This document shows positions 14,053-16,502 of a stretch of DNA of 29,362 bases, piece after piece (the stretch's first letter is position 1; the number at the start of each line of letters is the position of its first letter). The DNA is from Thiotrichaceae bacterium (GTDB lineage Bacteria > Pseudomonadota > Gammaproteobacteria > Thiotrichales > Thiotrichaceae). A program made the translations under genes and the position numbers. Below the pieces are notes generated by a model that worked only from the letters and a program-made list of their open reading frames with translations, ran no database searches and was not told the DNA's origin. Location of the stretch: the NCBI GenBank assembly GCA_026992705.1, contig JALWYT010000007.1:1312-30673 (forward strand), written 5' to 3'.

Positions 14053-14922
14053 TTATTTTGTTGATAATAAGGTATATTTTTTAGCTATGCTTAAAGGAGG
14101 TAGTTCACCATCAGGACCTTCATACTCGCCAGTAAAGGTATGAATAATTGTTGGATTGTCCTCCCCTGATTTATTTCTGGCTATACATAAAATATTTCCT
14201 GCATTTTCTTCTTCCCCTGCTTTACAATATTTTTTAAATGTTGTTTCACTTTCAGAATAAAATAAATCACCAAGAGTGTCTCCAACTTTCCCAATTACTG
14301 ATGCTGAGTTAGCCATAGTTTTTGACTTATATAAACCTGTAGCAGTAACGCCTAGCCCCATTTCACAAGAACCATCTTGTATTATAGATATTTCCTCCTC
14401 TGCAAATTTAAATTGTAACATACAGTCTTGTTCTTTATCTTTATAAGTGGCTATATCATCTTTTATTTCTATAATTCCCTCTACTTCTCCCGTATTACCT
14501 TTAGCATTAACAATAAGTAATTTAAAATAGGTCTCACCTTCTGACGTTGTTATTTCTAATTCACCTTCTTCTGATTCATATTTTCCATCTTTTGATGAAA
14601 AAACTAATTTAGACGATGAATTTTTTGATAATTCAGCAATACGTTCTTTCATTACATTATTTATACATTCCACTGTTTTACATTTATTCCTAACCATGTT
14701 TAGCCATGATGTTTGTTCTGCCTTTAAGCCTTCAGGATTGTTTGAGATAGCCAAAGCATCCTTATATTTCGATGCTAAATCTTCATCTAGTTTAGAGGCT
14801 TTTTCATTACTGCAAATGCTTTCTTCTACAAATGTAGAAGCTTTCTTACAATCGAAACTAGCAGCATGGACAGAAGACAGTAGTGTAGTAATAGAAATGG
14901 CAAGCAAGAATTTTTTATTCAT
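14053..14922 (-). CDS. Secreted protein with an N-terminal LprI-like (DUF1311) lysozyme-inhibitor domain and uncharacterised C-terminal domains
   Basis: Sec signal peptide ending VHA, then ASFDCKKASTFVEESIC...LDEDLASKY...AEQTSWL..RNKC...C, the LprI-family Cys pattern. Acidic beta-rich middle region. Confidence 0.75.
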   Translation of the reverse strand: MNKKFLLAISITTLLSSVHAASFDCKKASTFVEESICSNEKASKLDEDLASKYKDALAISNNPEGLKAEQTSWLNMVRNKCKTVECINNVMKERIAELSKNSSSKLVFSSKDGKYESEEGELEITTSEGETYFKLLIVNAKGNTGEVEGIIEIKDDIATYKDKEQDCMLQFKFAEEEISIIQDGSCEMGLGVTATGLYKSKTMANSASVIGKVGDTLGDLFYSESETTFKKYCKAGEEENAGNILCIARNKSGEDNPTIIHTFTGEYEGPDGELPPLSIAKKYTLLSTK

Positions 14923-15290: not shown

Positions 15291-15872
15291 ATGTTCGACC
15301 AAACACCAATCATTTCACCATGTCTTCCTAAATCGCTTAAATGTGTACAATCTGATGAGGAACTTGCTAAAGTACTTGAATTCAGGAAAAAAGTATATTC
15401 CCATACCTATCCAGGTGTTGAGATTGCTAAAAATGATCCTTATTACGATCAAGCCTATGTTGTTTATTCTGAAACAGATGAAGGTAAAGTAGAAAGTACA
15501 GGGACGGTAATTTTTGATAGCCAAAAAGGCTTACCAGAAGATAAATATTTTGCTGAAATGGTTAAGGAATATCGGCAATCAGGCAAAAAATTAGTTGAAA
15601 TTGGACGGTTTGTTATTGCAGGTCATAAAATTGATTTGCTGCAATATTATTACAAGGCTATTTATGACGTTGCTATAAAAAATCATATTGATATTGTTTT
15701 AATGGTTATTCGTCAAAAAGATATACGTTTTCATCAACGCATGATGGGTGTTGATTTACTTATACATGATATTGAAGAAGATTTCGGAAGTAGTTATGCT
15801 TTCTCTTGTATTGCTTGGGATATTGTAAAGACTCCGCAACGTTTTCATAATTGGGTTGCATTTGTAGCATAA
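15291..15872 (+). CDS. FeeM-like N-acyl amino acid synthase (GNAT fold)
   Basis: 193 aa. FRKKVY, GTVIFDSQKGLPEDKYF, then YRQSGKKLVEIGRF, matching the FeeM/NAS pattern DS..GLP.D..(F/Y)......R..G..L.E..R. GGAG RBS upstream. Confidence 0.7.
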   Translation: MFDQTPIISPCLPKSLKCVQSDEELAKVLEFRKKVYSHTYPGVEIAKNDPYYDQAYVVYSETDEGKVESTGTVIFDSQKGLPEDKYFAEMVKEYRQSGKKLVEIGRFVIAGHKIDLLQYYYKAIYDVAIKNHIDIVLMVIRQKDIRFHQRMMGVDLLIHDIEEDFGSSYAFSCIAWDIVKTPQRFHNWVAFVA

Positions 15873-16024
15873 ACGTTATTCAATTCTGTTTAGTATTTAT
15901 GCCCCTTTGTGCAATAAAAAATAATTGCATAACATGGGGCTATAAAAACTATCTTAATTATTTCTTTATAATTAGCATTTTTTTAAGTCTACATAAGACA
16001 CTGTTGTTATTTTTGTTATTTAAG

Positions 16025-16038
16025 GTCCAAATTTGGAC
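16025..16038. promoter_or_regulatory. Perfect 14-bp palindrome, candidate operator
   Basis: GTCCAAATTTGGAC is self-complementary and ends 77 bp before the FW-domain gene start. Confidence 0.35.
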
Positions 16039-16115
16039 TCTTGTGGTGCGTTGTAATATTTGCTCTTATCAGGTGTTCTAAAATGTACATAACATACTGA
16101 TAGGGGAGCAAGAAG

Positions 16116-16502
16116 ATGAAATATGGGTTGCTAATACGCGATAAACAACTATTTGGTGTTGAAGTTAAACAGTATTCAAAAAATGTTGTTGCCTCCGGAG
16201 AATATTTTGTACAAAAATGGAAAATTTTAAACCTTAGTAATAAACAGTGGAAAAATCTACATCTTCGACATATTGATAAATCACAAATGGGTTTATATCC
16301 TTATTTAAAAGTAAAACAACATAAAATTTTAATTCCTGATACTCAAATAGGTGAATCAGCAGAAATTAAAATTACATTTAAGGCTCCTAATTACCCTTGT
16401 TGTGTCGCTTCTCACTGGAATATCATTGATGAGAAACATCATATAGTATTGGATCGTATTAATTTAAAAGTTACAGTTCTATCTCATCCTGAGATAGTTT
16501 GA
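16116..16502 (+). CDS. Stand-alone NBR1-type FW / Ig-like domain protein
   Basis: 128 aa. VVASGEYFVQKWKILN...WKNLHL...IPDTQIGESAEIKITFKAP...SHWNIID fits the NBR1-Ig pattern (PGe.F.K.W.l.N...W...L...vp...PGe...i.v.f.AP....W.l.d). Own GGGGAG RBS; in-frame TAG at 16101-16103. Confidence 0.75.
   Translation: MKYGLLIRDKQLFGVEVKQYSKNVVASGEYFVQKWKILNLSNKQWKNLHLRHIDKSQMGLYPYLKVKQHKILIPDTQIGESAEIKITFKAPNYPCCVASHWNIIDEKHHIVLDRINLKVTVLSHPEIV

Follow-up and report, generated by a model that had tools for sequence, protein, structure and literature searches.

The FW (NBR1-Ig) domains that have been characterized are protein binders, with MAP1B, TAX1BP1 and Ams1 as their partners (PMC9582228, PMC9233695), and the same two papers mention bacterial FW domains without assigning them any function. 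The genes for synthesis of the methyl esters of N-acyl amino acids (NAMEs), which resemble acyl homoserine lactone (AHL) signals, have been stated to be unknown (PMC11580390). We examined a pair of genes, one encoding a FeeM-type GNAT acyltransferase and the other a small FW protein, that share a strand, with 243 bp between them, in a 29,362-nucleotide stretch of DNA (‘the window’) from contig 7 of a Thiotrichaceae metagenome-assembled genome (MAG; 2.1 Mb in 362 contigs, hereafter G000). The pair appears to be a derived, relocated fragment of a quorum-sensing-like gene cassette specific to the Thiotrichaceae, a reading to which, taken jointly with the signalling mechanism set out below, we assign a probability of about one half.

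The GNAT protein matches the Pfam FeeM family (PF21926) with an E-value of 5.5e-15 and 55.9 bits (cut-off 27), and its orthologues score between 53.8 and 67 bits against the same model. Comparison of its AlphaFold2 model (pLDDT 88.5) with known structures using Foldseek returned chains of FeeM (2g0b) as the top six matches (TM-scores 0.68–0.79), followed by the AHL synthases LasI (1ro5), MesI (6wns), TofI (3p2h) and BjaI (5w8g) at 0.57–0.65. A profile built from nine GNAT orthologues likewise had FeeM (2g0b) as its sole match among all PDB sequences. In that alignment, Glu103 of the window GNAT pairs with the glutamate of the FeeM KKLAEV segment, which we take to be the catalytic residue; Glu103 is invariant among the nine orthologues and throughout a wider family alignment, and every residue that is invariant across the GNAT family is retained in the window protein. 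A second motif, E-I-G-R-F, is in our reading closer to the LuxI motif (E-x-S-R-F) than to the E-V-V-Q-F of FeeM.

Membership of the LuxI family itself was rejected: the corresponding model (PF00765) did not match the GNAT protein at E-values up to 1, and a genome-wide search of G000 with the same model was also negative, but the control genomes of that search likewise gave no match. A toxin-antitoxin reading of the gene was rejected because it is FeeM-type by family match as well as by fold, and because it has no partner of an antitoxin type. A class-wide search of 400 sampled Gammaproteobacteria confined the GNAT subfamily to the Thiotrichaceae, plus one weak match that lacked the partner genes, and a metagenome scan with the GNAT alignment gave no matches. 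A distant FeeM-like GNAT (27% identity) was found on an Aliarcobacter cryaerophilus plasmid (NZ_CP099557.1; L109:996-4552); on such Arcobacter and Aliarcobacter plasmids the genes for a 7TM-DISM sensor kinase and a response regulator directly precede it, another arrangement that places a synthase beside a sensor.

The second protein of the pair matches the Pfam family N_BRCA1_IG (PF16158; E-value 2.7e-12, 47.6 bits, cut-off 28), and its profile finds human NBR1 (4ole; 8.6e-10), CtNbr1 from Chaetomium (7vqo; 1.1e-8) and ILRUN (6vhi; 7.1e-8) among PDB sequences. The closest structures to its AlphaFold2 model (pLDDT 83.6) are again NBR1 (4ole) and ILRUN (6vhi), with TM-scores of 0.63–0.74; a likeness to lipid-binding ML/NPC2 domains was rejected at TM-scores of 0.43–0.47. 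Three of the four signature tryptophans of the FW domain are present (W35, W45 and W101), and the third tryptophan position (FMW in NBR1) is not tryptophan either in the window protein or in the helix-turn-helix (HTH) FW proteins of Thiothrix described below. The open frame leaves no room for an N-terminal HTH domain, in the window or in its sister genome (G014), and no remnant of one was found in the 243-bp spacer. An exhaustive profile search defined a small FW-only subfamily of 128–139 residues, comprising the proteins of the window and of G014 together with P0008 (68% identity), P0009 and P0010; the next relatives tested were all XRE-type HTH-FW fusions of about 200–240 residues, and a word-index search recovered only the window's own protein. 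A metagenome scan with the FW-only alignment returned two unrelated HTH-FW loci and one short informative contig (Ga0256832_1119189), which carries an FW-only gene that is 67% identical to that of the window and, as in the window, convergent with yicC. The window protein also contains a vicinal cysteine pair (Cys95-Cys96, window positions 16398-16403) that is not conserved as such: Cys95, part of a ‘PC’ motif, is common to six of seven FW-only proteins and to most HTH-FW proteins, and Cys96 is unique to the window genome.

A sequence-only reading of the window had described these genes as two co-oriented open reading frames (ORFs) encoding a FeeM-like GNAT with a LuxI-related fold and a stand-alone FW protein. 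Coordinates, strand and spacing all held, each ORF is preceded by a good Shine-Dalgarno sequence, and both descriptions were borne out, the first by the PF21926 match and the ranking of FeeM ahead of the AHL synthases, and the second by the lack of room for an HTH domain.

The wider context of the pair was analyzed in the host order, which is represented by 107 species genomes, all of a single family. One hundred of these genomes were searched with the GNAT, the FW protein and alignments of an associated LuxR-like protein and of a methyltransferase, with coordinates tallied by script, and the fetched loci were additionally scanned with purpose-built hidden Markov models. In all 32 of the GNAT loci outside the window's genus, the gene is followed within 500 bp by a class I S-adenosylmethionine (SAM) methyltransferase, whereas neither of the two inside it (G000 and G014) shows this arrangement; in five genomes (G011, G033, G039, G046 and G064) the two are fused into one ORF of 429–467 residues. 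In 27 of the 32 the GNAT also lies within 3 kb of a gene for a LuxR-family protein with an autoinducer-binding domain (PF03472). Searches of the neighbours in three genomes (G054, G001 and G024) with Pfam confirmed the HTH-FW, Autoind_bind, FeeM and class I methyltransferase assignments. Representative cassettes lie at L043:4513-7399 (G054) and L045:883-3698 (G001, Candidatus Thiothrix sp. SCUT-1), and there are about 30 more. The nearest named families of the methyltransferase (BioC, trans-aconitate and fatty-acid O-methyltransferases, and UbiG) all fall far below their cut-offs, so that carboxyl methylation stays a guess.

The GNAT orthologues are 40–80% identical. Those of the sister clade, comprising Thiothrix sp. 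SCUT-1 (G001), Ca. T. singaporensis and three MAGs, are 47–50% identical to the window protein and are linked to HTH-FW genes, with the order XRE-HTH-FW, LuxR-like, GNAT, methyltransferase; an HTH-FW gene lies no more than 2.5 kb from the GNAT in every member of this clade. The stop codon of the HTH-FW gene overlaps the start of the LuxR-like gene in two loci (G001 and an MFD MAG), which suggests coupled translation.

Several further features of these Thiothrix-type clusters were observed. A conserved protein of 180–207 residues, with no match in Pfam or NCBIfam, is encoded convergently to the methyltransferase (L045:336-899, plus strand; L043:3957-4577, plus strand; L044:8903-9442, minus strand), and its gene is followed by a small gene, paralogous to HTH-FW, that encodes an XRE-type HTH alone (L043:3458-3781, minus strand). 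Two clusters are damaged. In Ca. T. singaporensis (G096, CP059265; L046:4559-6768) the HTH-FW gene is divided between two frames and a TGA codon and frame breaks occur in the GNAT, possibly as a result of assembly errors, and in G024 (L044:5452-7562) an insertion of about 0.8 kb apparently interrupts the LuxR-like gene.

The window's genus is represented by G000, its sister G014 and G006 (97% complete). Only G000 and G014 show a GNAT followed by an FW gene without an HTH domain, the spacer being 243 bp long in the first and 275 bp in the second, and a profile search at E-values up to 1e-5 detected no methyltransferase in either. Both genomes retain an orthologue of the LuxR-like gene, which is unlinked from the GNAT: no LuxR-like gene lies within 3 kb of it in either, the orthologue being on another contig (G000:C61:2185-2979, and contig 277 of G014) and having different neighbours in the two. 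The GNAT, FW and LuxR-like genes share their presence and absence within the genus, with all three in G000 and G014 and none in G006. The GNAT-FW pair keeps the same order and spacing at different chromosomal sites, adjoining yicC in G000 and genes for type II secretion in G014; the genes that come after yicC in G006 and G014 are cbpA-degP. All three genes have a lower GC content than their surroundings, and the pair falls below its flanks in both genomes (GNAT 0.33 and FW 0.29 in the window, against 0.39 for the window as a whole). The low-GC stretch of the window also includes a lipoprotein gene at 14053-14922 (minus strand, GC 0.32) that is divergent from the GNAT. The lipoprotein has LprI (PF07007) and DUF1131-like parts and a weak A1S_1983-type family match; in G014, where the contig stops a short way off, no counterpart was seen beside the pair.

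The protein encoded at G000:C61:2185-2979 scores 37.2 bits against PF03472 (cut-off 23) and is 43% identical, over its full length, to a cluster-linked orthologue (E-value 2e-75). The LuxR-like profile aligns in full length, HTH domain included, with RhlR (residues 20–238), TraR and LasR; the GerE Pfam model does not match the protein. We take the ligand pocket of TraR to include W57, Y61, D70, P71, W85 and G113. In an alignment based on RhlR, the equivalents of Y61, D70, W85 and G113 are kept, and those of W57 and P71 are phenylalanine, which is invariant in the subfamily. Such residues would be compatible with an acyl-amide ligand whose head group is not a lactone. Elsewhere in the family, six LuxR-like genes each contain exactly one in-frame stop (TGA, TAA, TAA, TGA, TAG and TAG among G089:C1:770480-771226, G068:C1:1044345-1045091, G083:C1:1716561-1717307, G017:C10:87293-88042, G098:C127:3533-4282 and G080:C1:491831-492577). 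Those of G068, G080, G083 and G098 are convergent with an HTH-FW gene and within 500 bp of it, that of G089 is about 3 kb from one, and the contig of G017 has no FW match; recurrent pseudogenization or a splitting into two genes may account for them.

In a tree of GNAT proteins, those of G000 and G014 are sister to the clade linked to HTH-FW genes, and in a tree of LuxR-like proteins the same two genomes group with eight that are directly preceded by HTH-FW genes (SH-like support 0.80). The agreement of the two trees suggests that an ancestral four-gene cassette was dismantled in this genus. The sequence-only reading had proposed that the GNAT makes an N-acyl amino acid signal or antibiotic, and the near-constant wiring of its relatives to an autoinducer-binding regulator fits a signal synthase. 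The pairing of GNAT and FW genes that it noted does recur, in G014 and, with HTH-FW genes, near the GNATs of the sister clade. Outside the genus, an FW gene has a GNAT within 3 kb in only 4 of 38 places, all of them sister-clade loci; inside it, the same holds for G000 and G014. For LuxR-like genes, 15 of the 38 places show one no more than 500 bp from the FW gene, 11 of them with no GNAT within 3 kb, and it is from this difference that we conclude that the FW gene follows the receptor more than the synthase. These FW-LuxR neighbours occur in at least three arrangements (co-directional with FW upstream, convergent and divergent); chance adjacency would be expected at about 1 in 1000 per gene, with the caveat that the observed cases are not phylogenetically independent.

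From this pattern, we believe that the GNAT is probably the signal synthase, the LuxR-like protein probably the receptor, and the FW protein probably a receptor-associated accessory factor. The GNAT would join a fatty acyl chain, supplied as acyl-acyl carrier protein (ACP) or acyl-coenzyme A, to an amino acid or similar amine, yielding an N-acyl amide signal. In relatives the methyltransferase would then cap this product, plausibly as a methyl ester, and in the window's genus the product would remain unmethylated. The LuxR-like protein at G000:C61:2185-2979 would sense the signal, and the FW protein could modulate that receptor by protein contact, most likely as an anti-activator in the manner of TraM or QslA; contact with the synthase would be less likely. 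Where an HTH domain is present, as in the relatives, the FW protein might serve as a co-regulator or as an RsaL-like repressor, and where it is absent the protein could act by contact only.

The family-wide combination of GNAT, methyltransferase and LuxR-like genes apparently constitutes an undescribed synthase/receptor system: full-text searches on FeeM-type and N-acyl amino acid synthases with LuxR receptors and on quorum sensing in Thiothrix, together with two surveys of LuxR solos and of luxR-linked clusters, yielded no account of this cassette or of an FW-LuxR pairing. A bolder proposal, which we rate as less likely than not, is that it represents an undescribed class of LuxR-type quorum sensing, in which a FeeM-type synthase and a methyltransferase make the autoinducer (plausibly a lactone-mimicking N-acyl amino acid methyl ester), a receptor-binding FW protein is a third component, and the window holds a minimal variant whose FW protein has no DNA-binding domain and whose signal is unmethylated.

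Several points weigh against the account given above. The association of GNAT with FW genes is limited to one clade and therefore represents one or two independent events; in the metagenome contig Ga0256832_1119189, which is short, no end of a GNAT gene was seen in the 390 bp upstream of the FW gene. Support for the combined LuxR clade is moderate. The FW tree places the proteins of the window and G014 on a long branch, apart from the cluster-linked HTH-FW proteins, and as the two are not grouped, descent of the window's FW protein by loss of the HTH domain from a cluster copy is unsupported. The product, and its recognition by the receptor, are uncertain because the methyltransferase, invariably linked to the GNAT elsewhere, was not found here. 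Every functional step is drawn from sequence, fold and gene context.

A different account, in which the GNAT product is a membrane lipid, surfactant or antibiotic and the FW neighbour regulates or handles a lipoamino acid with no involvement of quorum sensing, is in our judgment unlikely. It was their antibiotic or surfactant products that led to FeeM and other such synthases (PMC4897644; references in PMC11580390), and the lack of a detected methyltransferase and of an adjacent receptor gene in the window's genus would suit this account. Against it stand the near-obligate linkage, family-wide, between this GNAT subfamily and a regulator that binds autoinducers, and the shared presence and absence of the three genes within the genus; in addition, no exporter, resistance gene or further tailoring gene adjoins the pair in the window.

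The sequence-only reading had itself favoured another possibility, that the FW beta-sandwich is what binds the N-acyl amino acid product or passes it on to a partner, serving as an Ig-like substitute for LuxR. An HTH-FW fusion does have the architecture of a one-component regulator, whose C-terminal domain is normally the sensor; the FW gene directly follows the synthase gene in the window's genus; and Ig-like lipid binders (NPC2) do appear, far down, in the list of fold matches. But the gene conserved beside the synthase in relatives is a true LuxR-family one, with an orthologue in this genome, most FW-LuxR pairs (11 of 15) have no synthase nearby, and the fold corresponds to NBR1 and ILRUN rather than to lipid-binding ML domains. 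The known ligands of FW domains, moreover, are proteins (PMC9233695, PMC9582228). The presence of a true receptor gene, together with the FW-LuxR pattern, leads us to regard the role of the FW protein as receiver as quite improbable, and to retain that of a receptor-associated factor.

The DNA between the two genes bears on how the FW protein might be expressed (Table 1). The sequence-only reading had noted a hairpin and a perfect palindrome in this spacer, and RNA folding and a sequence check, respectively, confirmed them. The RNA fold of the whole spacer is better than that of shuffled sequences (z −3.9); neither of the two relatives available for comparison (G014 and Ga0256832) keeps the hairpin, and the AT-only stem-loop was not called by a terminator scan that requires three G-C pairs. 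The palindrome, GTCCAAATTTGGAC, is exact over 14 bp (16025-16038) and has no other copy in the genome. Its dyad outline, GGTnnAAATnTnnAC, and the adjacent block TTGT-n7-TGTAAYATTTGYT are kept in all three lineages compared (window, G014 and Ga0256832), and the changes within the dyad are symmetric (CC/GG to AT/AT). The FW gene would, in the proposed mechanism, be driven by a promoter of its own carrying this dyad, and it is probably expressed from such a regulated promoter. A degenerate form of the dyad, GGTNNAAATNTNNAC, has 12 matches across G000, as compared with 2 for a reversed control; none is near the GNAT or the LuxR-like gene, and the sites may represent a regulon. In Ga0256832_1119189, an insert of about 90 bp resembling a miniature inverted-repeat transposable element (L068:290-380), with terminal inverted repeats CCTGAATCCGTGA...TCACGGATTCAGG, separates the conserved promoter block from the FW start; the window lacks it.

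Table 1. Features of the GNAT-FW locus, in window coordinates
Feature	Position	Strand	Basis
FeeM-type GNAT N-acyltransferase, putative acyl-amide signal synthase, 193 aa	15291..15872	+	Pfam, profile, AlphaFold2/Foldseek
GC-clamped imperfect hairpin (GCCCC...GGGGC) just after GNAT stop; no U-tract after	15896..15946	+	Minimum free energy and centroid folds
AT-only stem-loop then T7, weak terminator-like site (inferred)	15954..15985	+	RNA fold, sequence
Conserved dyad GGTCCAAATTTGGAC and block TTGT-n7-TGTAATATTTGCT, putative operator/promoter of FW gene	16024..16063	+	Three-lineage comparison
Stand-alone FW/NBR1-Ig domain protein, 128 aa, cytoplasmic, no HTH	16116..16502	+	Pfam, profile, fold

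That the pair is instead a decaying remnant, in which the GNAT and a truncated FW protein ceased to cooperate once the methyltransferase was lost and the cluster broken up, would agree with the undetected methyltransferase, the lacking HTH domain, the unlinked receptor, the low GC content, the variable location and the damage to related clusters (stops in G096, an interrupted LuxR-like gene in G024), but simple decay is unlikely because ORFs, the upstream block and the catalytic motifs show conservation at 52–80% identity, with neither ORF disrupted in G000 or G014 at identities of only 66% and 52%, the FW gene intact in a third lineage (67–68%) as part of a small conserved subfamily, and all family-invariant residues of the GNAT kept.

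If the proposed quorum-sensing-like cassette is borne out, an entire clade of LuxR-family receptors otherwise counted as ‘solos’ would gain a cognate synthase that is not of the LuxI type, and there would be specific genes by which AHL-like signals of the N-acyl amino acid (methyl ester) kind could be made. It would also give a first functional context for a bacterial FW/NBR1-like domain, the presumed ancestor of the domain in eukaryotic autophagy receptors, and would point to cell-cell signalling in filamentous sulfur bacteria, relevant to wastewater bulking.

Among known systems, the GNAT is most like the type I synthases of N-acyl amino acids, FeeM among them (PF21926, 2g0b), with which it shares an above-cut-off Pfam match, the top structural match, the aligned glutamate and a size of about 190 residues. 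It is only about 17% identical to FeeM and has no fee-type ACP or tailoring genes nearby, and the GNATs of its relatives are wired to a LuxR-family gene, a wiring not reported for FeeM. A FeeM-type synthase together with a SAM methyltransferase, as found in the relatives, would be the simplest route to AHL-like esters such as the NAMEs. The NAMEs themselves were reported from a different bacterial class and reported not to act in AHL signalling; such chemistry is not known for the Thiotrichaceae, and the window genome differs further in the methyltransferase, which was not found there.

The FW protein belongs, by profile (E-values 1e-8 to 1e-10) and by fold, to the same family as the eukaryotic FW domains of NBR1, CtNbr1 and ILRUN (4ole, 7vqo, 6vhi). 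It differs from them in being a bacterial, cytoplasmic, single-domain protein without PB1, ZZ or UBA domains, in not keeping the third tryptophan position, and in having necessarily different partner proteins. In its position as a third gene in or beside a receptor-synthase locus it recalls RsaL (a small XRE-like HTH repressor), TraM and QslA (receptor-binding anti-activators) and TrlR (a truncated receptor). The HTH-FW proteins share an XRE-type HTH with RsaL, and an HTH-less FW protein, like TraM and QslA, could act only by protein contact; the FW protein has no sequence or fold relation to any of the four, and the suggested role derives from gene position alone.

As in LuxI/LuxR systems that use AHLs, and in LuxR systems that use other signals (PpyS/PluR with photopyrones, DarABC/PauR with dialkylresorcinols), the synthase gene lies, in the relatives, beside that of a LuxR-family regulator with an autoinducer-binding domain; the fold of the synthase is related to that of LuxI, and the candidate receptor aligns in full length with RhlR, TraR and LasR. 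Unlike LuxI/LuxR, the synthase leaves PF00765 unmatched, a methyltransferase partner is obligatory elsewhere in the family, the receptor has phenylalanine at the equivalents of TraR W57 and P71, and an extra FW component is added to a system whose parts are dispersed in the window genome.

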